A stretch of DNA of 10,043 nt. Source: a virus. Taxonomy: Duplodnaviria; Heunggongvirae; Uroviricota; Caudoviricetes. Shown here in pieces: positions 1 through 10,043 of the stretch. The position numbers and the translations under genes were made by a program. Under the pieces are notes generated by a model, which was not told the DNA's origin, searched no databases, and saw nothing but the letters and a program-made list of their open reading frames with translations. The stretch's first letter is position 1, and each line of letters starts with the position of its first letter. The stretch covers positions 1 to 10,043 of the IMG/VR virus record IMGVR_UViG_2639762982_000013; one strand, given 5' to 3'.

Positions 1-516
1 ATGAAATTTAAAAAATGTCTTCTGCCTGTGGCAATGTTAGCGTCATTCACTCTGGCAGGATGCCAGTCAAATGCTGACGATCATGCCGCCGATGTTTATC
101 AAACCGATCAACTGAATACCAAACAAGAAACTAAAACCGTTAATATTATTTCCATTCTTCCCGCAAAAGTTGCCGTAGACAACTCCCAAAATAAACGGAA
201 CGCACAAGCCTTCGGCGCGCTTATTGGCGCAGTCGCTGGCGGTGTTATCGGCCACAACGTCGGTTCTGGCAGCAATTCCGGAACGACGGCAGGGGCAGTT
301 GGCGGCGGAGCTGTAGGCGCGGCAGCGGGTTCTATGGTGAATGATAAAACCTTAGTGGAAGGTGTTTCTTTAACATATAAGGAAGGCACCAAAGTGTATA
401 CCTCTACCCAGGTGGGTAAAGAGTGCCAGTTTACGACAGGTTTAGCCGTTGTTATTACCACAACGTATAACGAAACGCGTATTCAGCCAAATACTAAATG
501 TCCTGAAAAGAGCTAA
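1..516 (+). CDS. yfgH: Outer-membrane lipoprotein with glycine-zipper domain (YfgH-like); host gene
   Basis: 171-aa ORF. Lipoprotein signal peptide with lipobox LAGC (Cys21). Gly/Ala-rich GxxxG zipper segment (GALIGAVAGGVIGHNVG...). Gene symbol from memory of E. coli K-12 yfgH (same length class), not verified. Confidence 0.8.
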   Translation: MKFKKCLLPVAMLASFTLAGCQSNADDHAADVYQTDQLNTKQETKTVNIISILPAKVAVDNSQNKRNAQAFGALIGAVAGGVIGHNVGSGSNSGTTAGAVGGGAVGAAAGSMVNDKTLVEGVSLTYKEGTKVYTSTQVGKECQFTTGLAVVITTTYNETRIQPNTKCPEKS

Positions 517-531
517 TAATCAGGAGGAGTC

Positions 532-1071
532 ATGAAGAAAGTTTTTCTTTGCGCCATCTTGGCCTCCTTAAGCTATCCGGCTATCGCCTCATCATTGCAG
601 GATCAACTCTCTGCTGTAGCAGAAGCTGAACAGCAAGGTAAAAATGAAGAGCAAAGGCAGCATGACGAATGGGTCGCGGAGCGCAACAGGGAAATCCAGC
701 AAGAGAAGCAACGTCGCGCAAATGCCCAGGCCGCCGCTAACAAAAGAGCGGCAACGGCAGCAGCAAATAAGAAAGCTCGTCAGGATAAACTGGACGCCGA
801 AGCCTCTGCGGACAAAAAACGCGATCAAAGTTATGAAGATGAGCTACGCAGCTTAGAGATTCAGAAACAAAAACTGGCGCTGGCGAAAGAAGAAGCCCGC
901 GTTAAGCGAGAAAACGAATTTATCGATCAGGAACTGAAGCACAAAGCTGCGCAAACCGATGTGGTGCAATCTGAAGCTGACGCCAACAGAAATATGACTG
1001 AAGGCGGTCGCGATCTGATGAAAAGCGTGGGCAAAGCAGAAGAGAACAAATCGGACAGCTGGTTTAATTAA
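532..1071 (+). CDS. yfgI: Secreted/periplasmic charged coiled-coil protein (YfgI-like); host gene
   Basis: 179-aa ORF, strong SD AGGAGG 7 nt upstream. Sec signal peptide (…AIA/SS), then K/E/Q/A-rich low-complexity helical region. Synteny with the preceding yfgH-like gene; symbol from memory. Confidence 0.75.
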   Translation: MKKVFLCAILASLSYPAIASSLQDQLSAVAEAEQQGKNEEQRQHDEWVAERNREIQQEKQRRANAQAAANKRAATAAANKKARQDKLDAEASADKKRDQSYEDELRSLEIQKQKLALAKEEARVKRENEFIDQELKHKAAQTDVVQSEADANRNMTEGGRDLMKSVGKAEENKSDSWFN

Positions 1072-1110
1072 TCGATGTTAGTAACTTCAAGCCTATGATT
1101 CTTGAAGATA

Positions 1111-1142
1111 AAAAACCCTCTGTAGTAACAGAGGGTTTTGTT
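1111..1142. terminator. Bidirectional rho-independent terminator downstream of yfgI
   Basis: A5-CCCTCTG-tagtaa-CAGAGGG-T4: 7-bp GC-rich stem with A-tract before and T-tract after, so it is readable on both strands. Confidence 0.6.
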
Positions 1143-1267
1143 CATTCATAGTGCAGGGATTAAAATCATTCCCACTCAATTATTTACGACACGCATAACC
1201 AATTGACTGATAACAACTTTCTGCAACCTGACTTTCACCGTACCGTTTTATATACCGTCACCGAAAA

Positions 1268-1765
1268 TCAGTACCACGATTTTTGCTTCTTCAGTGAATC
1301 GTATTGCTGTTCGCAGGATTCTCCTGCAATCCGATACTTTTCAGCCTCAGCTGCTGTTGCGTTGTAAACTCGATTGCTTTCTTCAAGCATGTCGGCGAGC
1401 ACACCGATGACCTTGCTGGCTGGCGTGCCAGTGGGGAAAGATCCGGTATAGTGTTCGGCGAGTCGCTTGGTTTTGTCAAGCTCGGCGCGCAGGCTGTCAG
1501 CAGCGGCATTAGCATGCTCAGCATCAACACGCGCCACATCGATACGGGATTGTGCTTCACGTTCAATTTGTGTTTTCTCCTGATCACGTTGTGACCTAGC
1601 CTTATCATTAGCCTGTTTCTGATCTTCCTGTGCCTGCGCATACCCGGCGTCGTACTGACGACTGCCGTGTGCATTCCAGGCTACAACTCCTGATATGACC
1701 AGAACAGCAAGCATCGCCATGATAACCAACTGTTTCCAGTATGCTTTTACGAATGCCCAGATCAT
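1268..1765 (-). CDS. Phage i-spanin (Rz-like inner-membrane spanin subunit)
   Basis: 165 aa with N-terminal TM helix, then charged helical periplasmic domain. Start overlaps endolysin stop (ATGA). Last gene of the lysis cassette and contains an embedded lipoprotein ORF. Confidence 0.7.
1291..1539 (-). CDS. Phage o-spanin (Rz1-like outer-membrane lipoprotein), embedded in the i-spanin gene in another frame
   Basis: Internal Met of the 127-aa alternate-frame ORF gives [17 protein letters not shown]…: signal peptide plus lipobox LTAC, then a Pro/Ser-rich short mature region, as in lambda Rz1. Fully nested in 1268-1765. Exact start uncertain (alternative Met at 1524); no strong SD. Confidence 0.55.
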   Translation of the reverse strand: MWRVLMLSMLMPLLTACAPSLTKPSDSPNTIPDLSPLARQPARSSVCSPTCLKKAIEFTTQQQLRLKSIGLQENPANSNTIH

Positions 1766-2391
1766 ACCGCCAGCGCCTTACTGGCAGTGATGTACCGAGC
1801 GCGCCGGTCGTCGATGCCGTTCCTGCCACCATTGATAATCAGAGTTACACGTGCAATATCGCCGGTATACTTCATGCAACCTTTGCTGGAGAAGAACCAC
1901 GCCGCGCTACGAGCCGCGTATTCGTCCTGCGCCAACAGTTCAGGATTCTCCAGCAGGTCCACTTTCAGGCCGTTTCCGCAATCACGATAGTTATTCAAAC
2001 CGGTAATCTGGATAAGTCCGCGGCCACGGTAATTCCAGCCATCACCAGAGGCATTGTTCCCCATGCGTTTGCTGTACACCAGATTGGCGATCGCTCTCTG
2101 GCGCTCGAGTGGCAATGGTGGTTCACCAGCACGGCGACCAAGTGCATTAGCCTGTCCCTGAGTGAGACGCCCAGCCCGAACGAAGTTAGCCAGTCCGGTG
2201 ACGCTGTAGTTGAAATTTTCCTGCAACCGGGTGAATCCACCAGACTCATGCCCGACCTGAGCAATAAACATTGCCTGATCTTCAGCTTTGCTGATACCAA
2301 ACTCTTTCATCGCAGAAGTTATATGCGAGAACCAGCGTGCGGCCAGCGCCTCGCTAATACCAGCAGCTCGCTGGAATTGTTTAATCTCCAT
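1762..2391 (-). CDS. Phage endolysin, glycoside hydrolase family 19 (chitinase class I-like)
   Basis: 209 aa. Motifs [21 protein letters not shown] and AAWFF typical of GH19 phage lysins. SD GAGG 8 nt upstream. Flanked by membrane proteins and spanins. Confidence 0.9.
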
Positions 2392-2689
2392 GTTTAGACC
2401 TCGTTATTTTAAAAATCTGCACGACGTTACCGCGCGTTTTAATAACCGCAGCTAGCATGACAGCGTTGATAATGACCTCAGATAAATCCACAGCCATTGG
2501 CGTACGTAACCAGATTGCATAGGCGACACGAACAGGAATACTGGCCGCAGCAACAATCAGGAAATAAGCAAGCCATCCTCCCCACCTTCGGTGTTGAGAG
2601 CCGTTACGCCGGAATGTGACAACGCGAATTGCTATGCCAGTGCAAATAACTGCATTGGTGATAAGCAAAAAAAACTCATGCGTTACCAT
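2381..2689 (-). CDS. Lysis-cassette small membrane protein (holin/antiholin-like)
   Basis: 102 aa with 2-3 predicted TM helices. SD GGAG 8 nt upstream. Overlaps the upstream gene by 14 nt and the endolysin start by 11 nt, indicating translational coupling. Confidence 0.55.
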
Positions 2690-3089
2690 CGTCTTTTCTC
2701 CCCGGAATTAACTCGCGTGGATTATCGGAACGGTGATAAAGCCATATACCAATTCGCACAGCGACAATTGACGACACAAATGCGCCAGCAGAGAAGACGA
2801 TCCCTTTCTCGAAAGAGTCCTGCGTGATGGTAGGGATCAGGCTGGCTACACCGATAAGGATGGATGCTGTAGGTTTGTAAAAGAGAAGGCCGCAGAGGAA
2901 GCTGAGCATAGACAGGAGAACCCGGCGATGAATGGGATACTCGATGGCTGAGGTAACAAAAATTACCGCCCCAGCCAAAGCTCCCAAAGCCACCTCTGGA
3001 GGAACCCCTGCTATCACCGCAGCAAGAGAACTCGCACTAAGCCACTGATTTAAAGACTCACTGGTTAGCTGAACTGACATAAAAAACAC
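2676..3089 (-). CDS. Putative holin (multi-pass membrane protein), first gene of lysis cassette
   Basis: 137 aa with 3-4 hydrophobic helices and a charged C-terminus. Position directly upstream of the endolysin. Start may be the second ATG at 3080. Family not recognised. Confidence 0.55.
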   Translation of the reverse strand: MFFMSVQLTSESLNQWLSASSLAAVIAGVPPEVALGALAGAVIFVTSAIEYPIHRRVLLSMLSFLCGLLFYKPTASILIGVASLIPTITQDSFEKGIVFSAGAFVSSIVAVRIGIWLYHRSDNPRELIPGRKDDGNA

Positions 3090-3185
3090 CGTTTAATGTG
3101 CATAAAGAATCCCCTTAGTTGGTTAGTTCATCATACACAATAAACCATATGTGGATTAAACTTGATCTGATAATTCTTAACGAAA

Positions 3186-3200
3186 TTACCTTAAAGGTGA
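3186..3200. promoter_or_regulatory. Palindromic site A (TTACC-TTAAA-GGTGA), member of a five-copy family
   Basis: Lies in the 212-bp gap between the tail fibre and the lysis operon, about 100 bp upstream of the holin start. One mismatch from a perfect palindrome. Flank ATATC is shared with site C. Confidence 0.4.
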
Positions 3201-3301
3201 TATCATAAATATCCTTGTGTCATTTAAAATTAGAGTTAGGGCATGATAGCCAACATACAATATTTGCGTTTTCTCGCTGCATTCCTTGGCGATGACTTCT
3301 C

Positions 3302-5065
3302 TTAAACAACAATTTTAAGGAAATTTGAAGCATCCTTATAGATGGTGCCCGCGGTGGCGCCGTTTATCTCCTCAAGCGTTTTTACATTCTTCAAAACCAC
3401 CTTGCCATCTTCCAGAAATTCAATGCATGGTGCGTCGTTGTTCATGTTTATTTTCAACGAACCAACAGCACTACCTCCGTTTCCGCTTATCCATTCAAGT
3501 GACGCAATAGGAAGTGCATTGCCGTTGTGATCTGTCCCTTGTAGCAAGATCCTTCCAGTTCCTACCCCTGGTATTCTGATAGCTGCGCGACCACCATCCT
3601 CTAAAACTACTTCCAAAATTTCTTTAGGATATTTTGTGTGCACTCCTACACGCGTCAGCGAACCACCACCACCAGGGACGACGGCAATACCTGGAATAAG
3701 CGATTCTGCAAAAAGCATCACTGAGTCTTTATGTGGATTGATTGCTGGCTTATCGTCATTAGTGCCGCTCCCTATCGCAATCGAACCACCATAAGCCTGA
3801 ATATTCTTACCTACAGCAAAAGAGCCATCTCCTGCCGCGCGAGTTCGATATCCAATGGCTGCCGCACCAATGCCATCACTTGCAACCCCGCCGGGGTCTG
3901 TAGTGTATCCCGGTCTGGCTTGTGTATAATAACCTGTTGCAAAAGCCGCCCTTGAAAGCGCTTCCGTTTCTTCACAGAATGCGGCAGATTTTGCTCCAAG
4001 AGCAATGACATTTTTCCCAAATGCAAAAGAGCAGTACCCCTCAGCATTTGGTGAGGTAATATGATCTGGGTCCCCAGTGGCAGAACCAGCACCACCGGCA
4101 ATAGATGCCACGCCGTACGTAACGCAGTCATGCCCGAAAGTTGTGGTGTATACCGCGAATGACGCACCGTTTCTGTTAAAAGATACTGAGTAATCACCGA
4201 TAAGAGCCGGGTTACACCATGAATTTCTCGGTGTAGGCAAGCCTCTCCAGAAGTTCTTTTCATCGTCAAGTGGTAGGAGATCGGCACCACCAATTCTCAG
4301 CCAACCTTTATCCTTATCAAAAGAAAAAGTGACGCCATCGGTTAAAGTAGATCCAACCGGTATACCGTAATTAACTTTTGTGCCAATCCTCTTAAGCCCG
4401 TCAGGTTGCGCCAGCAATAACAGAACATCTGCTGCACTACCGCTCTCAGGCAAGACCATAATGGACTCACCTGCATAATCATATGCATGGATCATATTTG
4501 CACGTTCTGCAGCAGGAGGGAGTTGCCGCGTAAATGACTCTGGAACCCTTAACGTGTGCAGATAGTTGTTGTTACTAATCGTGTCTACATAATTTTTAGT
4601 GGCAGCATCCTGCGGGTCTCGTGGGTCGCGCAGGTTGCGAATGTAATTCCCCAGCGCGTCGTACCAGTTAGCGATGGTTGATGGCTTGCGCAGCGCCAAG
4701 GCAAACCAACTGCGAACCTGCTGGATCAGCATCGTCAGTTTATCGAATGCGTCTTCATGCACCTCAGCGAAGAACTTACCCTGGTTGCGCAGATCGGTAT
4801 CCTGCGTAACCGGTAGCTCTCTTGATATAGAAATCTGATAACCGTTAGCCAACGCCTTCGACAGAATTACATTGCCGCCGTTATACCCTCCCGCACCAGT
4901 GACTATGTAATCAGTATCAAGAATCAGCTCTGTGATGTTCTCGTTCAGGTCAACAACCTGCACTACTAAATCAGATTTCTGGAAAATCCTGAAGGTATAA
5001 GGGAATGCCGTTGTAACACCGTTACCTGTGTATTCGTTGTGGTCAACTTCGGTTGAGACCGTCAT
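3302..5065 (-). CDS. Phage tail fibre / tailspike protein
   Basis: 587 aa. The N-terminal ~150 aa (MTVSTEVDHNEYTGNGVTTAFPYTF…DYIVTG) resembles the conserved T7 gp17-type virion-attachment domain. The C-terminal two thirds are Gly/Ala/Ser-rich with repeated beta-strand-like motifs (SFAVGKN, SIAIGSGT, IGAAAIGY), as in trimeric receptor-binding domains. Confidence 0.85.
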   Translation of the reverse strand: MTVSTEVDHNEYTGNGVTTAFPYTFRIFQKSDLVVQVVDLNENITELILDTDYIVTGAGGYNGGNVILSKALANGYQISISRELPVTQDTDLRNQGKFFAEVHEDAFDKLTMLIQQVRSWFALALRKPSTIANWYDALGNYIRNLRDPRDPQDAATKNYVDTISNNNYLHTLRVPESFTRQLPPAAERANMIHAYDYAGESIMVLPESGSAADVLLLLAQPDGLKRIGTKVNYGIPVGSTLTDGVTFSFDKDKGWLRIGGADLLPLDDEKNFWRGLPTPRNSWCNPALIGDYSVSFNRNGASFAVYTTTFGHDCVTYGVASIAGGAGSATGDPDHITSPNAEGYCSFAFGKNVIALGAKSAAFCEETEALSRAAFATGYYTQARPGYTTDPGGVASDGIGAAAIGYRTRAAGDGSFAVGKNIQAYGGSIAIGSGTNDDKPAINPHKDSVMLFAESLIPGIAVVPGGGGSLTRVGVHTKYPKEILEVVLEDGGRAAIRIPGVGTGRILLQGTDHNGNALPIASLEWISGNGGSAVGSLKINMNNDAPCIEFLEDGKVVLKNVKTLEEINGATAGTIYKDASNFLKIVV

Positions 5066-5169
5066 GTTAAATCTCCAGATAGTCGCAGCACCCGTTGCGC
5101 CGCATATCTGGTTATTCTATTACCTGAAAAACCACATATGGATAGAAAGACTATAAATACCAATAGATA

Positions 5170-5184
5170 TTACCTTTCGGGTAA
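5170..5184. promoter_or_regulatory. Palindromic site B (TTACC-TTTCG-GGTAA)
   Basis: Perfect 5-bp inverted arms with a 5-nt spacer in the divergent region between the tail fibre gene and the small SOS-box gene. Confidence 0.4.
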
Positions 5185-5221
5185 TTTGCAAAACGTGCTG
5201 GATAGCAAACAAATTATTTGA

Positions 5222-5241
5222 TACTGTATATTTATACAGTT
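5222..5241. promoter_or_regulatory. LexA (SOS) box
   Basis: TACTGTATATTTATACAGTT matches the E. coli LexA consensus TACTGTATATATATACAGTA at 18/20, with CTGT-N8-ACAG intact. Located 20 bp upstream of the ATG at 5261 and overlapping a plausible -10. Confidence 0.7.
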
Positions 5242-5260
5242 ATTGCATGGAGAAGATAAG

Positions 5261-5518
5261 ATGCAGCAGTATCACTATCCACTGGAAGACGGATTTACCG
5301 AAAGGATTCACACGCCGGGAGGCGTCAGGTCACTGGTGGAGGGATCGCACTTGATGAAATTACTCCGGGATCTCGATAAGGATGGATTTAATGTCGATGG
5401 CCCACTTGCCGAACTGACTGCACTGATTAACTACGTCACCAGCTCACAGATGTCTATGCTGGATCTGCAAACACATCTCGACTATTGTGCCGAACAATTA
5501 CGAAAACAAACCCGGTAA
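5261..5518 (+). CDS. Small SOS-regulated protein, candidate Tum-like antirepressor (homologous to C-terminal domain of the AntA protein at 6669-7325)
   Basis: 85 aa from the ATG at 5261 with SD GGAGAAG; the ORF track extends it to a TTG at 5243. Roughly 40% identity by eye to the last ~80 aa of the 218-aa AntA-domain protein (IH[TS]P[GS]GV…LM.LL..L..DG..V.G..AELT…D.QTH..Y). LexA box immediately upstream. Confidence 0.6.
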   Translation: MQQYHYPLEDGFTERIHTPGGVRSLVEGSHLMKLLRDLDKDGFNVDGPLAELTALINYVTSSQMSMLDLQTHLDYCAEQLRKQTR

Positions 5519-5522
5519 ATTT

Positions 5523-5542
5523 AAAGGCCGCAAGAGCGGCCT
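5523..5542. terminator. Bidirectional rho-independent terminator between convergent genes
   Basis: AGGCCGC-aaga-GCGGCCT stem-loop with A-rich 5' flank and T-rich 3' flank. Sits between the + gene ending at 5518 and the - gene ending at 5541. Confidence 0.6.
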
Positions 5543-6269
5543 ATCGTTTCGCTTTGTGCTCGTCCCAGCACGTTTTGCACCATGCCATTAAGCCATCCGC
5601 ATTTTGATTATTAGGGTAAAAGCTTGTTCGTTTTCTGCGGACATTACAAATTGGGCACCACTTCATATGGCGTGTATTCTTTGGGCCATCGAGACACCTT
5701 GCACACCACTTAGTCAATCCATCTGGATTTTTTGACGATTTCCTGAATTTTTCATATGGTAGGTTTATTCTGCATCGCAAGCACTGCTTGCTACCACTTG
5801 AAACTCTGTTAGCTGATTCTTCTTTTGGCGGCGATACAGAAGGTATTCTTGCTGGCTCTGATACTGCCTGAGGTGCTTTTTTAGATGACTGAGACGATAT
5901 GTCATCACCAGGGAATCTTCCATGATATGCCGGACGCGTTGACACTCCAGGTGGAAGCTCAGCTGTAAACGGCTTTGGCTGAATCAGTTGCCTCTCTTTT
6001 GCTAACTCCTGCTGTTTATAATATGTCTGGATTACCGCACTATCATAAGCAGGAGGTGCGGAAATATTAGGCGCATTACCTCCAGTTTTTTGAAACTGAG
6101 TAGAGGTGTGTTCTATCACCTGTGTACGATTAATCGTTATCTCCCCATCTTCGGTCTTTATCGTTTTGTTATGATTAACGACCGTACGATCAGAGATCTT
6201 AGTCTTGTTCTGGTTGATAACGTAAATAATCACCGCAACCACACCAACAACTATCCAGAAAACTTCCAT
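5541..6269 (-). CDS. Membrane-anchored protein with tandem C4 zinc-ribbon repeats (function unknown)
   Basis: 242 aa. N-terminal TM helix (residues ~4-20) followed by K/R (positive-inside), a Pro/Ser/Gln-rich linker, then two copies of CxxC-x16-DGL-x2-WC-x2-C. SD GAGGA 8 nt upstream of the ATG. Confidence 0.7.
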   Translation of the reverse strand: MEVFWIVVGVVAVIIYVINQNKTKISDRTVVNHNKTIKTEDGEITINRTQVIEHTSTQFQKTGGNAPNISAPPAYDSAVIQTYYKQQELAKERQLIQPKPFTAELPPGVSTRPAYHGRFPGDDISSQSSKKAPQAVSEPARIPSVSPPKEESANRVSSGSKQCLRCRINLPYEKFRKSSKNPDGLTKWCARCLDGPKNTRHMKWCPICNVRRKRTSFYPNNQNADGLMAWCKTCWDEHKAKR

Positions 6270-6289
6270 TGCTTTTCCTCACAATAACA

Positions 6290-6304
6290 TTACCTTAAAG
6301 GTAA
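6290..6304. promoter_or_regulatory. Palindromic site C (TTACC-TTAAA-GGTAA)
   Basis: Perfect palindrome about 10 bp upstream of the SD of the minus-strand zinc-ribbon gene. Core identical to sites A and D. Confidence 0.4.
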
Positions 6305-6382
6305 TATCTTGCTTTCAGGTGATCAAGCGTTAAACGCAATCAACCAAATACGGTTGATTTTAATATTTCTTCGCGTTTATCA

Positions 6383-6397
6383 TTACCTTTGCGGTAA
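6383..6397. promoter_or_regulatory. Palindromic site E (TTACC-TTTGC-GGTAA)
   Basis: Same arms as the other sites, with a spacer like site B. Lies just upstream of the structured leader preceding the AntA gene. Confidence 0.35.
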
Positions 6398-6488
6398 ATT
6401 TACATTGCACTCCTCTTGTGCCATAGTAATCGGGCACTGGCAAAATCCAGTGCCGGGATTGGTCTCCCGGATTACTAAGTGGCGCATA

Positions 6489-6510
6489 CCACGCCAGACG
6501 TGGTTTTTTT
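6489..6510 (+). terminator. Putative intrinsic terminator / attenuator hairpin in the leader of the AntA-like gene
   Basis: CCACG-ccaga-CGTGG followed by T7. Preceded by two GC-rich hairpins (6433-6454 and 6453-6470) that share bases, so alternative pairings are possible. Confidence 0.4.
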
Positions 6511-6668
6511 ATGCGTATAGCACAGTCATGCCAGAATTATGGTGGGCTGAATGGGGGTCCGAAAGGACGCCGGTACCACTTAGGCCGGTAAGACCAACTC
6601 CGTTCAGTTCACCACCATCTGATTGGTCTCAGCGGTGGTGATGTAATTCGCTAAGTGGAGACGCCATC

Positions 6669-7325
6669 ATGAACGCTCAACTCATCCCCGTATTCAACGG
6701 CACTATATCTAACGAAACAGCCCTACTTTGTAATGCCCGCGATCTGCACGCTTTTTTAGGTGTTAAAAAGGTGTTTGCAGCATGGATTACAAATCGCATA
6801 TCAGAATACGAATTCATTGAAAATCAAGACTATATTTTGCTTTCCAATTTGGGAAAGCAAACATCTGGTAGAGGCGGCCACAACCGCAAAGAGTACCACC
6901 TCACCCTTGATACAGCCAAAGAGCTGGCGATGGTCGAGCGTAACGAAAAAGGTCGCCAGGTGCGACGCTACTTCATTGAATGCGAGAAACGTTTAAGACA
7001 ACAAGAAACAAAAGTGGAGAAGGTCTTGTCAGGCTTCATGCCCGCCATTATGGAGGCGATCAAGCTGGAAGACAAAAAAGAATACAGCGCCCCACTGAAG
7101 CCCGGCTACCGCAGCCTGATTCATTCGCCGTCTGGTGTTCTTGGACTGACGGAGAACTCACTGCTGATGAATCTGCTGAACCAGTTACAGGACGACGGGC
7201 ATGACGTATCGGGCGCGGCGGCGGAGCTGACCACCATGTTCTGCTACATCGTCGGTGTGAGCAAATGCCTGCGTGATATCCAGACGCACGCGGAGTACAT
7301 CAGCGACAAAGCAGGATTCTTCTGA
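6669..7325 (+). CDS. Phage antirepressor-like protein, N-terminal AntA-type domain with a C-terminal domain shared with the 5261-5518 protein
   Basis: 218 aa, SD GGAG 8 nt upstream. N-terminal region ([10 protein letters not shown]…[33 protein letters not shown]) matches the AntA/pRha-type antirepressor N-domain pattern. C-terminal ~80 aa is paralogous to the small SOS-box protein. Confidence 0.8.
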
Positions 7326-7391
7326 CGGGCGGCGGCACAGGGATGTGCCTTTAAAATAATCATTGGCGATGTGATGTAGATTCGCGTAATA

Positions 7392-7406
7392 TTACCTTAA
7401 AGGTAA
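7392..7406. promoter_or_regulatory. Palindromic site D (TTACC-TTAAA-GGTAA)
   Basis: Perfect palindrome about 43 bp upstream of the ATG at 7449, the first gene of the low-GC two-gene module. Confidence 0.4.
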
Positions 7407-7448
7407 ACCTGTTTTTATTTTATACCTGTAACTTACCGGAGATTAAAG

Positions 7449-7775
7449 ATGACAAAACTTGGATTCGTGATGAGAGGTCCGGTAAGAAGCGGAACTCATG
7501 CAAAGCGTAGCAAGAGTCGTATTTTTACTGGTAAGGTTGTAGCACGTAAATCAGCTATTGGCTCGTTCAATAGTGAAAATGCGGCATTGCGCCATATTTT
7601 TATCAGCACAAAGCCAAGAGCATCCGCTGATGTGCATACAATGTCTATTCCTATCACAAAGAATATAAAGCGGATAAAAAAGCTCTCATCTGCAGAATCA
7701 AAAGAGATATCTTTCCGCCAGCTTAACTCATTAGAAACGCATATGAAGGAAGAGGAATTCGATGTTTTTGAGTGA
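7449..7775 (+). CDS. Small highly basic protein, candidate antitoxin / partner of the downstream YafO-like protein
   Basis: 108 aa, SD GGAG 8 nt upstream. Very K/R-rich N-terminal two thirds and an acidic C-terminal tail (EEEFDVFE). Overlaps the downstream gene by 14 nt. No recognisable Phd/YefM or other antitoxin fold from sequence. Confidence 0.5.
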   Translation: MTKLGFVMRGPVRSGTHAKRSKSRIFTGKVVARKSAIGSFNSENAALRHIFISTKPRASADVHTMSIPITKNIKRIKKLSSAESKEISFRQLNSLETHMKEEEFDVFE

Positions 7776-8274
7776 GTATAGCGGGAAGGTTATACCTACT
7801 GGTGAGTTTAAAACTGATGACTTTCTGATTTCGCTAAAAGATGCTTTTAAACAACACTGGCGTCATGGTCATCATCCTGATCTGGGAAAAGATACTCTTT
7901 TTGAAAGACCAGACGAAGTATTAGGCTTCCATCTCAGAAAGGTTCATGTCAATATTGGTGAATATGCATCATATTCATACTCATGTACTGAACAGTGTTG
8001 GGATGAGTGGTCATATGGATTGATTGATGAACAAGGAAATTACAGGCCAAAACCAACCAGTAACGCATATCTCATATATGCAGTCAATGAAATAAGAGAT
8101 GCAGCCTTACTAGCTTATTGGGACCCGCCCGCACACACCAAAGCTAACGCAAAAGTTTGGATGGATTCCGTATTGAATTTCACAAAATTATTTCATGAAC
8201 GAACGAATACAGCCCCACTTAGTAGAAATGTTTATCCGTGGGATTATTCGTACAAATCCAAAAAGCCTGCATAG
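7762..8274 (+). CDS. YafO-like toxin-domain protein (putative ribosome-dependent mRNA interferase)
   Basis: 170 aa with a strong SD (AGGAAGAGGA). From memory of E. coli YafO, the motifs align: PDLGKDTLFE / FHLRKVHVNI / AYLIYAV…AALLAYWDPPAHTKA versus YafO PDIFGRDALYD / FERVAHIHLA / AHLVYCQ…AWLLIAILKPEPHKLA. About 40 aa longer than YafO. Local GC is about 38-40% against about 50% in the flanks. Confidence 0.55.
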   Translation: MFLSEYSGKVIPTGEFKTDDFLISLKDAFKQHWRHGHHPDLGKDTLFERPDEVLGFHLRKVHVNIGEYASYSYSCTEQCWDEWSYGLIDEQGNYRPKPTSNAYLIYAVNEIRDAALLAYWDPPAHTKANAKVWMDSVLNFTKLFHERTNTAPLSRNVYPWDYSYKSKKPA

Positions 8275-8355
8275 TAGTTTTTTATGGACGAAACAAAAGT
8301 CAGTGCTACACTCATTGACGCCACATTGAGGTGGCTTATAGATGGAAATGTCACA

Positions 8356-8517
8356 ATGAAAAAAGCATTTGCTGCACTGTTCGTTTTGTTGTCTCTGGTA
8401 GCTTCAACTCAGGCCTTTGCCGGTCGTTGTCAGCACGACAGCGATACTGCCGCTGACGGCTCCCGCTGCGGTGGGCGTTCTGCGGATTCCCGCCCGGGCG
8501 GTGGTGGCATTCGTTAA
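8356..8517 (+). CDS. Small secreted Cys/Gly-rich peptide (hypothetical)
   Basis: Internal Met of the 77-aa ORF gives MKKAFAALFVLLSLVASTQAFA/GRCQ…, a canonical Sec signal peptide with AxA cleavage site and a ~31-aa mature peptide containing 2 Cys and a Gly-rich tail. Weak SD; local GC is high. Confidence 0.4.
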   Translation: MKKAFAALFVLLSLVASTQAFAGRCQHDSDTAADGSRCGGRSADSRPGGGGIR

Positions 8518-8522
8518 AAACA

Positions 8523-8540
8523 AGGCCGCGAAAGCGGCCT
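8523..8540. terminator. Bidirectional rho-independent terminator (mainly for the minus-strand membrane-protein gene)
   Basis: AGGCCGC-gaaa-GCGGCCT, near-identical stem to the terminator at 5523-5542. On the minus strand it is followed by TTTTTAAC. Confidence 0.55.
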
Positions 8541-8548
8541 GTGACATG

Positions 8549-8845
8549 TCACACTCTTTTTCTGAATGATAGCCATTCGAAAAATGATGACATTCCACCG
8601 CAGACAATAGCAAAGATGATCCCACCAAAGAATAGAAGGCCAGCCTGCCACCACTCCCACCGCCATACATCCACAGCGCCAACCATACCAACAATCGCTC
8701 CAACAAATGGAATATAGCTCACGATGAAAGCAATGGGGGCTGCAATTATCCAGTGCAATCCCCACCATGATTCAAGCCCAGCCATAATTGCTGCCAACTG
8801 AAAAAGACCAACGACGATATAAACAATGAATCCTATCGCTTGCAT
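8549..8845 (-). CDS. Small Trp-rich integral membrane protein (3 predicted TM helices), function unknown
   Basis: 98 aa, hydrophobic throughout with a WRWEWW motif. The terminator lies immediately downstream. A possible 50-codon hydrophobic ORF with a GTG start (8858-9010) sits 14 nt upstream. Confidence 0.6.
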   Translation of the reverse strand: MQAIGFIVYIVVGLFQLAAIMAGLESWWGLHWIIAAPIAFIVSYIPFVGAIVGMVGAVDVWRWEWWQAGLLFFGGIIFAIVCGGMSSFFEWLSFRKRV

Positions 8846-9040
8846 GTAGTTACCTATTTACCCAGTAAAAATCAGAGGCCTCCCCTCAATAAGGCTTGCA
8901 ACAAGAACTACTCCCTGCACAACAAAGATGAACCAGCAAATAGCTTGAGTCTGAGGGTTAAGAAAATATTTGTAGCGGTCAATAAATAACAGTCCACCAG
9001 AAATTATCACACTCAAAATAATTAAAAACACAACACTTCC

Positions 9041-9865
9041 TTATTGCGGAGTGACATCCTGAGGTCGCCACCAGTATGTCTGGTTAAACTCTTTCTTCGA
9101 ACGTTGCTCCATTTTACGCAAATAGCCTGGTGAAAAATACTCCTGCATCTGGTTAAAGATCATGTGATCGAGAGCCGCCTTCAAGTACCAGAGATTCGCA
9201 CCAGGCATCAAACCTTTCCCCAGCTTCACCAGATCACCACCAGTCTGCTCACTCTTCCCTTCCACAGCATTTAACGGTATGCCCTGAGCAATCTTCACTA
9301 CGTCATCAACCAGACCAGCTACCGGGCCAAGCATCGACGCCAGCGCGCCGCTTCCGTACCTAGTGTGATCTGACAATAAAAAGTCACCGTAAAGGCCAAG
9401 ACCACCACCTTTCAGTAGAGCACCAAGCCAAAATTTAGCAGCATCTTCTCCTGTCATCTCGCGAGGATTACGACCAGACGCAAGGTCGTTAAGTTGCTGC
9501 GACAAAGCGCCAAGAATGGTCGTACTGGCAATAAACGTCGCAATATATGCCGCACGCCCACCAGCAGACGGCATACCCATAGCGCGTGACCAGTGACGCA
9601 TAACCACCGAGATAGGGAACGATTTAAACAGGAAAACACTTCTCGTTAATTCACCTTTCCATGTTCCACGCTGAATACCAGAACCGGTTATCAGTTGCTC
9701 ACGTGCTCCCGGTGTAATAACAGCCATATCAACTTCTTCAGTTACGGCACCGAGCAGTTTACGCATTGCCTCAAATTTCACGCGTTCAGGCTCACCAAGA
9801 TGTTTAACTGCTGAATCAGGGATACGCATAATGCTTTCCGGTGTCAGCATCGTATTATTACCGTT
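9041..9865 (-). pseudogene. 3' fragment of a phage protein (possibly virion/ejection-associated) truncated by IS2 insertion
   Basis: The 283-aa ORF listed from 9892 takes its first 9 codons (MSGNIGANP) from inside the IS2 terminal repeat. The native reading frame continues upstream across the IS boundary at 9865/9866, so the N-terminal part of the gene lies beyond IS2. No family recognised. Confidence 0.55.
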
Positions 9866-10043
9866 TGGATTTGCCCCTATATTTCCAGACACCTGTTATC
9901 ACTTAACCCATTACTGGCTTGCTGCCGTAGATATTCCCGTGGCGAGCGATAACCCAGTGCACTATGCGGATGCCATTCGTTATAATGCTCGAATGCCTCT
10001 GCAAGGTTCTTTGCTGCCGTTAACCCGTCTGGTTTGGGCATGA
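9866..10043 (-). mobile_element. IS2 (IS3 family), partial: right terminal repeat and 3' end of the transposase; the element continues beyond the window
   Basis: The reverse complement of 9866-9908 reads GGTTAAGTGATAACAGGTGTCTGGAAATATAGGGGCAAATCCA, which matches the IS2 right end as I recall it. The adjoining ORF encodes an IS3-family transposase C-terminus. Confidence 0.8.
9877..10043 (-). CDS. insD: IS2 transposase OrfB (InsD) C-terminal end, partial
   Basis: Minus-strand translation …[54 protein letters not shown] with stop at 9877-9879. The motif [13 protein letters not shown] is characteristic of the IS3-family integrase C-terminus. The 5' part is outside the window. Confidence 0.8.

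Follow-up and report, generated by a model that had tools for sequence, protein, structure and literature searches.

An Ant-Rep-LexA switch was reportedly worked out in the Salmonella phage SPC32H by Kim and Ryu (2013, J Virol 87:11775) and Kim et al. (2016, PNAS 113:E2480), the structures being available as Protein Data Bank (PDB) entries 5D50 and 5D4Z. We analysed a stretch of 10,043 nt, called the window throughout (positions 1 to 10,043 of IMG/VR virus record IMGVR_UViG_2639762982_000013, Caudoviricetes), and found in it the Escherichia coli counterpart of the SPC32H ant gene, together with a second gene whose product carries a domain of the same type fused to another one. Our main conclusion, which we regard as very likely, is that two antirepressors are built there on one repressor-binding domain: the 85-amino acid (aa) Ant, controlled by LexA, and a 218-aa fusion protein, controlled by RNAs and probably by Rep. 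For the SPC32H system, a passage of PMC7380047 attributes to Kim and Ryu 2013 that Ant synthesis follows the SOS-dependent self-cleavage of LexA, and a passage of PMC9986798 gives the C-terminal tetramerisation domain of Rep as the part bound by Ant. The circuit logic of LexA-controlled antirepressors of the Gifsy type is described in PMC3121763, and in the Gifsy-1 prophage the IsrK RNA acts in trans to unlock translation of a downstream antirepressor-like gene (Hershko-Shalev et al. 2016, PMC4825925).

The coordinates of all features are collected in Table 1. Encoded outside the immunity region and oriented divergently from the tail-fibre gene, ant is preceded by a predicted LexA box, TACTGTATATTTATACAGTT. 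A first-pass annotation of this DNA, made by a model, had called this box near-consensus, with 18 of 20 positions matching, and had placed it just upstream of an 85-aa gene. Both statements were borne out: the box is the only site in the window with three mismatches or fewer to the consensus TACTGTATATATATACAGTA, no such site appeared in any of 200 dinucleotide-preserving shuffles, and it ends 19 nt before the ATG of ant (position 5261), with a GGAGAAG ribosome-binding site in between. An alternative TTG start exists in the same frame at 5243; the SPC32H orthologue and the PDB chain start at the ATG. A scan for consensus promoters gave no -35 and -10 hexamers for ant.

A phmmer search of PDB sequences with the 85-aa protein returned one match (E 4e-46), the 86-aa chain E of 5D50 named ‘Anti-repressor protein’, in which residues 3-85 aligned with residues 2-84 of the query. 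By tblastn the protein was 86.7% identical to the annotated ant product of Salmonella phages SPC32H and SPC32N, and it matched phrog_450, the family of free Ant proteins (E 1e-46). The genomic setting is the same as well. In SPC32H, which belongs to the same genus, ant is divergent from the tail-spike gene and distant from rep (the tsp/ant arrangement), and the ant/tail-spike intergenic regions of the two phages align with their LexA boxes in register and with the same ribosome-binding site. To judge from sequence and gene order, the 85-aa protein is the orthologue of SPC32H Ant and the E. coli counterpart of a structure-solved antirepressor. The core Ant-Rep-LexA system is already characterised, down to its structure, and is not new; on this point the first-pass annotation, which had put it forward as a candidate antirepressor pair, has to be corrected.

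The ant orthologues of E. coli, Salmonella and Enterobacter phages have the CTGT-N8-ACAG core of the box at the same upstream position, within flanking sequence that is otherwise divergent; in two Klebsiella phages the motif reads ATGT-N8-ACAG. SPC32H and SPC32N differ in the ant intergenic region at a single position, a C-to-A change in the CAG half-site. According to what Kim and Ryu (2013) are said to have observed, mutation of that half-site makes Ant synthesis constitutive and leaves SPC32N unable to remain lysogenic. The LexA-box-plus-ant unit is present in 529 of 5426 complete E. coli genomes (~10%). It escapes annotation: ant was labelled ‘hypothetical protein’ in every RefSeq E. coli record inspected, and neither Pfam nor NCBIfam holds a model that covers it.

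The first-pass annotation had further aligned the 85-aa product with the C-terminus of the 218-aa protein and had assigned an AntA domain to the latter. The AntA domain scored far above the Pfam cut-off (Table 1), and BLASTP gave an ungapped alignment of residues 2-79 of Ant with residues 137-214 of the larger protein, with 31 of 78 positions identical (40%, E 8e-16). In our alignment of the domain (A3), 22 columns are invariant: Y4, P7, I16, H17, P19, G21, V22, L25, S29, L31, L34, L35, D41, G42, V45, G47, A50, E51, Y58, Q70, T71 and H72 (Ant numbering). Residues 137-213 also matched chain E of 5D50 (E 4e-14), and the 218-aa protein was recognised by phrog_450 (E 1e-35) and, over its full length, by phrog_377 (‘anti-repressor Ant’). 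A single-sequence AlphaFold2 model of the full protein was unusable (predicted local distance difference test score, pLDDT, 36.5) and only a model of the C-domain was retained. The latter, computed for residues 132-218 with a 30-sequence alignment, was all-helical (pLDDT 76.5), and 5D50 was the one PDB entry in which Foldseek found convincing neighbours, namely chains G and H (TM-score 0.59-0.74, probability 1.00). Free Ant is a tetramer, and in the crystal complex 5D50 the whole 86-aa Ant is the Rep-binding unit; for the latter reason the earlier proposal that the shared domain is the repressor-binding effector is upheld. The 218-aa protein is most likely a second antirepressor, with a C-domain paralogous to Ant that would bind a Rep-type repressor.

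The likeness of this locus to Tum of phage 186 and to the Gifsy antirepressors GfoA, GfhA and GftA, pointed out in the first-pass annotation, holds for the circuit logic: a LexA box, and a small protein encoded outside the immunity region that binds a non-cleavable repressor and inactivates it. It does not extend to homology. Here there is neither a DinI partner nor a DinI fusion and the repressor is of another family. Membership of the Tum/Gifsy family was ruled out by an all-against-all BLASTP comparison with Tum (186), GftA, DinI and AnrP (Gifsy-1 LT2), in which neither Ant nor the 218-aa protein matched Tum, GftA or AnrP at E <=10; the sole hit, to the Gifsy-1 DinI homologue, was not meaningful (E 0.29). 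Since they share no sequence similarity with the proteins of the window, the Tum and Gifsy proteins are functional analogues only.

As to control, the idea of an SOS-triggered antirepressor pair stands for the 85-aa gene, given its SPC32H orthologue, and fails for the 218-aa gene. No LexA box was found upstream of the latter, which lies behind an isrK-type RNA, a C4-type RNA and an operator-like palindrome, so that the pair is not jointly and directly SOS-controlled. The predicted sigma-70 promoter would start transcription at ~6434, the very base at which the isrK match begins. Within the leader, a segment of C4 (6585-6602) is complementary to 6454-6465, inside isrK, and to 6623-6635, a layout like that of seqA, seqB and seqC. 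The predicted fold of the 248-nt leader is much more stable than those of its shuffled versions (z = -5.4), the middle hairpin of isrK pairing with the C4 region. These C4/IsrK pairings probably gate either translation or transcript elongation of the 218-aa gene.

Two described systems come close to this leader. The immI region of phage P1 is under a C1 operator and the c4 RNA, and the P1/P7 layout is c4, icd, ant. Common to immI and to our locus are a C4-family RNA right upstream of an AntA-domain antirepressor gene, C4-complementary sequences both upstream and downstream, and an operator-like site for the primary repressor at the promoter. The window differs by having no icd, by isrK placed before C4, and by an Ant-type C-terminal effector domain instead. 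The other relative is the isrK-orf45-anrP unit of Gifsy-1, which likewise comprises isrK with its terminator, a structured leader with a C4-like element and a small open reading frame (ORF), and an antirepressor-like gene; there too the predicted folding pairs the middle of IsrK with the downstream leader. A parallel with the seqA-CI-seqC layout of P4 is drawn in PMC4825925. AnrP, in contrast, is an ORF6N-domain protein dissimilar to the 218-aa protein, and orf45 overlaps the anrP start (AUGA), whereas the 37-aa ORF found at the orf45 position of the window stops 27 nt before the ATG at 6669. AUGA coupling is absent for that reason, and the 218-aa gene has its own GGAG.

The window contains five copies, with at most one mismatch, of the palindrome ATTACC-N5-GGTAAT, against 0.01 expected. 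In the epsilon15 record, the site orthologous to the copy at 5169 is annotated ‘repressor; lysogeny’, as are six more sites of the same form. SPC32H has two copies in the rep-cro intergenic region and three more just past rep. Because of the epsilon15 annotation and of this placement around rep, we take the motif as the predicted operator of Rep. In six of the seven aligned variants, including ones in which the downstream gene is of the Bro-N type, the copy at 6382-6398, next to the -35 of the isrK promoter, reads (A/T)TTACC-TTTGC-GGTAAA; the phiV10 equivalent retains the TTTACC and GGTAAA arms, with GCAAA as spacer and a 3-nt gap in the -35. Since this operator-like site abuts the -35 and is conserved across variants, repression of the second antirepressor operon by Rep is probable, with the RNAs as a further gate. 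More generally, the five copies each head a transcription unit, which, taken with the epsilon15 and SPC32H placement, suggests direct repression by Rep at many scattered promoters, in the manner of C1 in P1.

The repressor itself is less conserved than its antagonist. The Rep homologue of the sister E. coli phages (194 aa; phiV10p40 and TL-2011b) is 42% identical to SPC32H Rep. Either the part of the Rep C-terminal domain touched by Ant would be conserved, or a single Ant may serve several immunity types. No rep gene lies within the 10-kb window; its expected position is ~25 kb away, past the IS2 end found at the edge of the window.

The Ant-type domain is used more than once in this group of phages. 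The stretch that encodes the C-domain (window 7050-7360) is found again, with 93-95% DNA identity, joined to other N-terminal domains, namely Bro-N (TL-2011b AEW24558, ZX5 ORF4 and many E. coli chromosomes) and P22_AR_N (TL-2011b AEW24595 and a prophage locus, L008). From one fusion to another the linker and C-terminal region are 81-84% identical in amino acids, and the C-domains are ~40% identical to free Ant. In ZX5, TL-2011b and an E. coli chromosome, the Bro-N version too lies behind the same isrK and C4 leader. The P22_AR_N-Ant gene has sar or Arc neighbours and, as far as gene content tells, is in some sister prophages a cassette of the P22 immI type. Here lies another difference with SPC32H: the Salmonella phages have ant only (a single place by tblastn), and the E. 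coli lineage adds one or two downstream fused paralogues. Up to three Ant-domain genes are found per prophage, and fusions co-occur with Ant and with a Rep-type repressor in the Uetakevirus genomes inspected. In phiV10, the type phage of the E. coli group, a frameshift shortens the Ant-like C-domain of the Bro-N protein phiV10p23; because of it, phiV10 is probably without a working second antirepressor.

On a wider scale, a profile search of 1.84 billion representative proteins gave 64 clusters at E <=0.001, made of free proteins of 80-95 aa and of C-terminal fusions of 130-319 aa; with just 64 clusters, the family is a narrow one. The free orthologues with a named source and all phage matches were enterobacterial. 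The fusions came from this profile search of representatives, a word-indexed homologue search with the 85-aa protein having given close free-standing orthologues only. Of the 5426 complete E. coli genomes, 469 have one fused copy or more, the maximum being three in a genome.

Functional data exist for one of the fusions. When ORF4 of phage ZX5 was overexpressed, the lysogen titre fell from 1e9 to 1e6 and repressor mRNA dropped by 75%; the ZX5 Rep sequence is the same as that of phiV10 (PMC9782041). ORF4 has the same isrK and C4 leader as the 218-aa gene and its Ant-like stretch differs at two positions only (~97% identity); it differs by its N-domain, Bro-N in ORF4 and AntA in the protein of the window. 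A term search of the main text of the ZX5 paper found no mention of SPC32H or Bro-N, and the small ant gene went unrecognised there (PMC9782041), being a ‘hypothetical protein’ in the ZX5 record.

From the above, the following scheme can be proposed. In the lysogen, LexA bound at its box would silence ant. Upon DNA damage, cleavage of LexA would allow transcription of ant and synthesis of Ant, a small helical tetramer, which would bind the C-terminal tetramerisation domain of the non-cleavable Rep. Rep tetramers would then split into dimers and leave their operators, so that the lytic genes would be turned on and the prophage induced. All of this was demonstrated with the orthologue, and is carried over to the present locus by orthology, synteny and conservation of the box. 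The AntA domain of the 218-aa protein and the isrK/C4 leader would derive from a module of the P1/P7 immI type or of the Gifsy-1 isrK-anrP type. The role of the 218-aa protein would most likely be that of a feed-forward latch or an anti-immunity function. As a latch, removal of Rep by Ant would open the isrK promoter and, once the C4/IsrK gate is passed, more Rep-binding protein would be made. As an anti-immunity protein, it would be made early in infection, before C4 RNA accumulates, and would neutralise the Rep of resident lysogens. A bolder scheme for the phiV10/TL-2011b lineage would have one Rep-binding domain at work in three circuits: free under LexA, fused to AntA or Bro-N behind the Rep-gated isrK/C4 leader as the latch that commits the SOS-triggered switch, and in the Arc/sar P22_AR_N fusion, the C-domain setting repressor specificity while N-domain and leader are interchangeable; we offer it tentatively, as a possibility that is rather doubtful.

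Several points weigh against the proposal of two antirepressors sharing a Rep-binding domain. For this E. coli locus, binding by LexA and to Rep is taken over from an orthologue that is 87% identical, whereas Rep of the E. coli type shares only 42% identity with that of SPC32H. The fused C-domain shares just ~40% identity with free Ant. The identity of the palindrome as Rep operator is based on the epsilon15 annotation and on placement, and translational coupling of the kind that links orf45 to anrP is absent between the 37-aa ORF and the 218-aa gene. Finally, rep is outside the window and the prophage is interrupted by IS2 at ~9866, so that the cognate target of the antirepressors is not visible here.

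The moderate identity of the C-domain to Ant would also fit a protein in which this domain is an oligomerisation module only and the AntA- or Bro-N-type N-domain acts on another target than Rep, be it DNA or host takeover. The tetrameric state of free Ant, which means that conservation could partly reflect self-assembly, goes in the same direction, as does the fact that swapped AntA, Bro-N and P22_AR_N domains are widespread with a poorly defined function (for Bro-N, see PMC9782041). We nevertheless consider this improbable: three unrelated N-domains share a near-invariant C-domain, as expected if the phage-specific effector is the C-domain; in the genomes inspected, fusions are accompanied by Ant and by a Rep-type repressor; and the Bro-N fusion of ZX5 reduces lysogeny 1000-fold, along with repressor mRNA, in a phage with a phiV10-type Rep. 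It is more plausible, yet still a tentative possibility, that the second antirepressor serves against heteroimmune Rep variants, in anti-immunity or cross-talk, and does not reinforce the induction of the prophage that encodes it. P1 and P22, whose regulatory modules recur here, have large antirepressors that act upon infection and on the repressors of other phages; the contrast between Rep (42%) and Ant (87%) suggests antirepressors spanning several immunity types; and up to three Ant-domain genes are present per prophage. Against this, the isrK promoter carries an operator-like palindrome, which implies that it is governed by the Rep of the same phage, and the phage affected by ZX5 ORF4 is the one that encodes it; besides, the two roles are compatible with each other.

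The last two explanations bear on the locus as such. With IS2 truncating the 824-aa structural gene at ~9866 and no rep in the window, the module could be the relic of a crippled prophage that controls nothing, or else acts in trans on other resident prophages. This we find unlikely. Both genes, the LexA box, both RNA elements and all the palindromes are intact and match their counterparts in uninterrupted prophages and free phages at 98-99.7% identity. With IS2 in a structural gene, it is virion production that is blocked and not the switch; action in trans has documented precedents among the antirepressors of Gifsy/Fels prophages (PMC3121763). As for the LexA-like palindrome being a chance AT-rich inverted repeat, with an 85-aa ORF that is not SOS-regulated, this is hardly credible in view of the shuffling result (0/200 with three mismatches or fewer), of the conservation of the core over four host genera with diverging flanks, and of the CAG half-site difference between SPC32H and SPC32N. 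The interpretation given in the first-pass annotation, an antirepressor pair sharing its effector domain, is supported on the whole, with the three corrections made above on Tum/Gifsy homology, on the control of the 218-aa gene and on novelty.

Since the core finding re-identifies a characterised switch, its main value is one of annotation: the gap concerns ~10% of complete E. coli genomes, despite a protein of known structure and published function that is 87% identical. It explains how these prophages, common at the guaA/yfgI site, could detect DNA damage although their repressor is not cleavable. Pathogenic strains are among their hosts, and an enterohaemorrhagic E. coli outbreak strain is the source of sister phages such as TL-2011b. 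The new content is modest and concerns the use of a shared effector domain in several control circuits, with a possible Rep-gated latch. If this is true, N-domain and leader would be interchangeable regulatory cassettes, and the C-domain would set repressor specificity in the large, little-understood ‘antirepressors’ of the Bro-N, AntA and P22_AR_N types. The locus offers a tractable way to learn through which of its halves a large antirepressor recognises the repressor, and whether a second one is a commitment latch or an anti-immunity weapon.

Table 1. Features of the window and of related loci (positions refer to the window unless another record is named)
Feature	Position	Strand	Remarks
Host genes yfgH and yfgI	1-1071		
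Attachment core ATTGAGTGGGAATGATT	1164-1180	-	Exact phiV10/epsilon15/ZX5 copy; right prophage junction, between yfgI and spanin gene
Palindrome copy 1	3185-3201		Head of lysis-gene unit
Tail-fibre gene	3302-5065	-	
Palindrome copy 2, ATTACCTTTCGGGTAAT	5169-5185		Tail-fibre/ant intergenic region, 37 bp upstream of LexA box
LexA (SOS) box TACTGTATATTTATACAGTT	5222-5241		2 mismatches to TACTGTATATATATACAGTA; LexA binding predicted
Shine-Dalgarno of ant, GGAGAAG	5249-5255	+	Read from sequence; conserved in orthologue alignment
ant, 85-aa antirepressor	5261-5518	+	Orthologue of SPC32H Ant
Terminator-like hairpin, G+C-rich	5525-5542		Between convergent ant and 242-aa genes
242-aa protein	5541-6269	-	N-terminal membrane helix; two C-terminal CxxC...WCxxC zinc-ribbon repeats
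Palindrome copy 3	6289-6305		Head of 242-aa gene
Palindrome copy 4, ATTACCTTTGCGGTAAA	6382-6398		Directly abuts -35 of predicted isrK promoter
Predicted sigma-70 promoter	6399-6427	+	TTTACA, 17 nt, TG-extended CATAGT; start ~6434
isrK-type small RNA	6434-6510	+	Rfam RF01394, 67.7 bits (gathering 50), E 3.8e-13, full length
isrK terminator	6488-6504		Own terminator, hairpin then U run
37-aa upstream ORF	6528-6641	+	Overlaps C4; Gifsy-1 orf45 position; coding status uncertain
C4/CI-type antisense RNA	6535-6619	+	Rfam RF01695, 61.2 bits (gathering 45), E 3.3e-10, full length
Target-like sequence TTGGTCTCAGCGG	6623-6635	+	21 nt upstream of GGAG of 218-aa gene
218-aa two-domain protein, most likely antirepressor	6669-7325	+	
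AntA domain, residues 22-92	6732-6944		Pfam PF08346, E 4.2e-26, 91.8 bits (cut-off 27)
Ant-like C-domain, residues 137-214	7077-7310		
Palindrome copy 5, ATTACCTTAAAGGTAAA	7391-7407		3' of 218-aa gene, ahead of accessory-gene block
108-aa ORF	7449-7775	+	Overlaps start of 170-aa gene
170-aa protein	7762-8274	+	Sub-threshold YafO-toxin match (Pfam E 9.5e-4)
IS2 end	9866-10043		Terminal repeat TGGATTTGCCCCTATATTTCCAGACA and transposase C-terminus (minus strand)
TL-2011b (L001), third Ant-domain gene	L001 7438-8382	-	P22_AR_N fusion
TL-2011b (L001), sar RNA	L001 8384-8451	+	P22 immI antisense RNA; RF00262, 44.8 bits
P22_AR_N-Ant fusion gene of L008	L008 11710-12648	-	
Arc-family gene of L008	L008 13009-13440	+	Near the fusion gene
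phiV10p23 (Bro-N)	L004 19646-20230	-	Ant-like C-domain shortened by frameshift (...LLMNRTTGMMYQARRRS)
rep of SPC32H	L002 33739-34335		
rep of phiV10	L004 32087-32671		

The window is the right arm of an E. coli podophage prophage of the epsilon15/phiV10 type (genus Uetakevirus), integrated next to yfgI and guaA. Its junction carries ATTGAGTGGGAATGATT, the published attachment core of phiV10, epsilon15 and ZX5 (PMC9782041), after which come, in order, the genes for a spanin, a GH19 endolysin, a holin, a membrane protein and the tail fibre, then the ant region, variable accessory genes and the 3' portion of a virion structural gene. The nearest free phages are TL-2011b, phiv142-3, HEMP4, ZX5 and phiV10; a related prophage, in which the structural gene is uninterrupted, is 99.5% identical to the window across 1-7407. 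The structural gene, which codes for 824 aa and is whole in a ~99%-identical locus (L013), is cut here at ~9866 by the IS2 end. The prophage is defective for particle production as a result, and the switch genes are untouched by the insertion. A 283-aa ORF at 9041-9892 was considered as an intact gene, since 283-aa genes are called at the same spot in other prophages, and rejected: its first codons are IS2-derived and L013 has the uninterrupted 824-aa gene there.

A few side observations concern the neighbouring genes. The 242-aa gene sits between ant and isrK in the window, in TL-2011b and in L013, and is absent from ZX5 and from two other loci (L005 and L008). Its product is a member of phrog_6762 (function unknown), with weak matches to Stc1 and to PHROG families of the endonuclease VII and Lar-like types. 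Further downstream, the 108-aa and 170-aa ORFs may form a toxin-antitoxin accessory unit, the RefSeq label of the 170-aa protein being ‘type II toxin-antitoxin system YafO family toxin’; in other prophages, different genes occupy the 7449-8274 spot.

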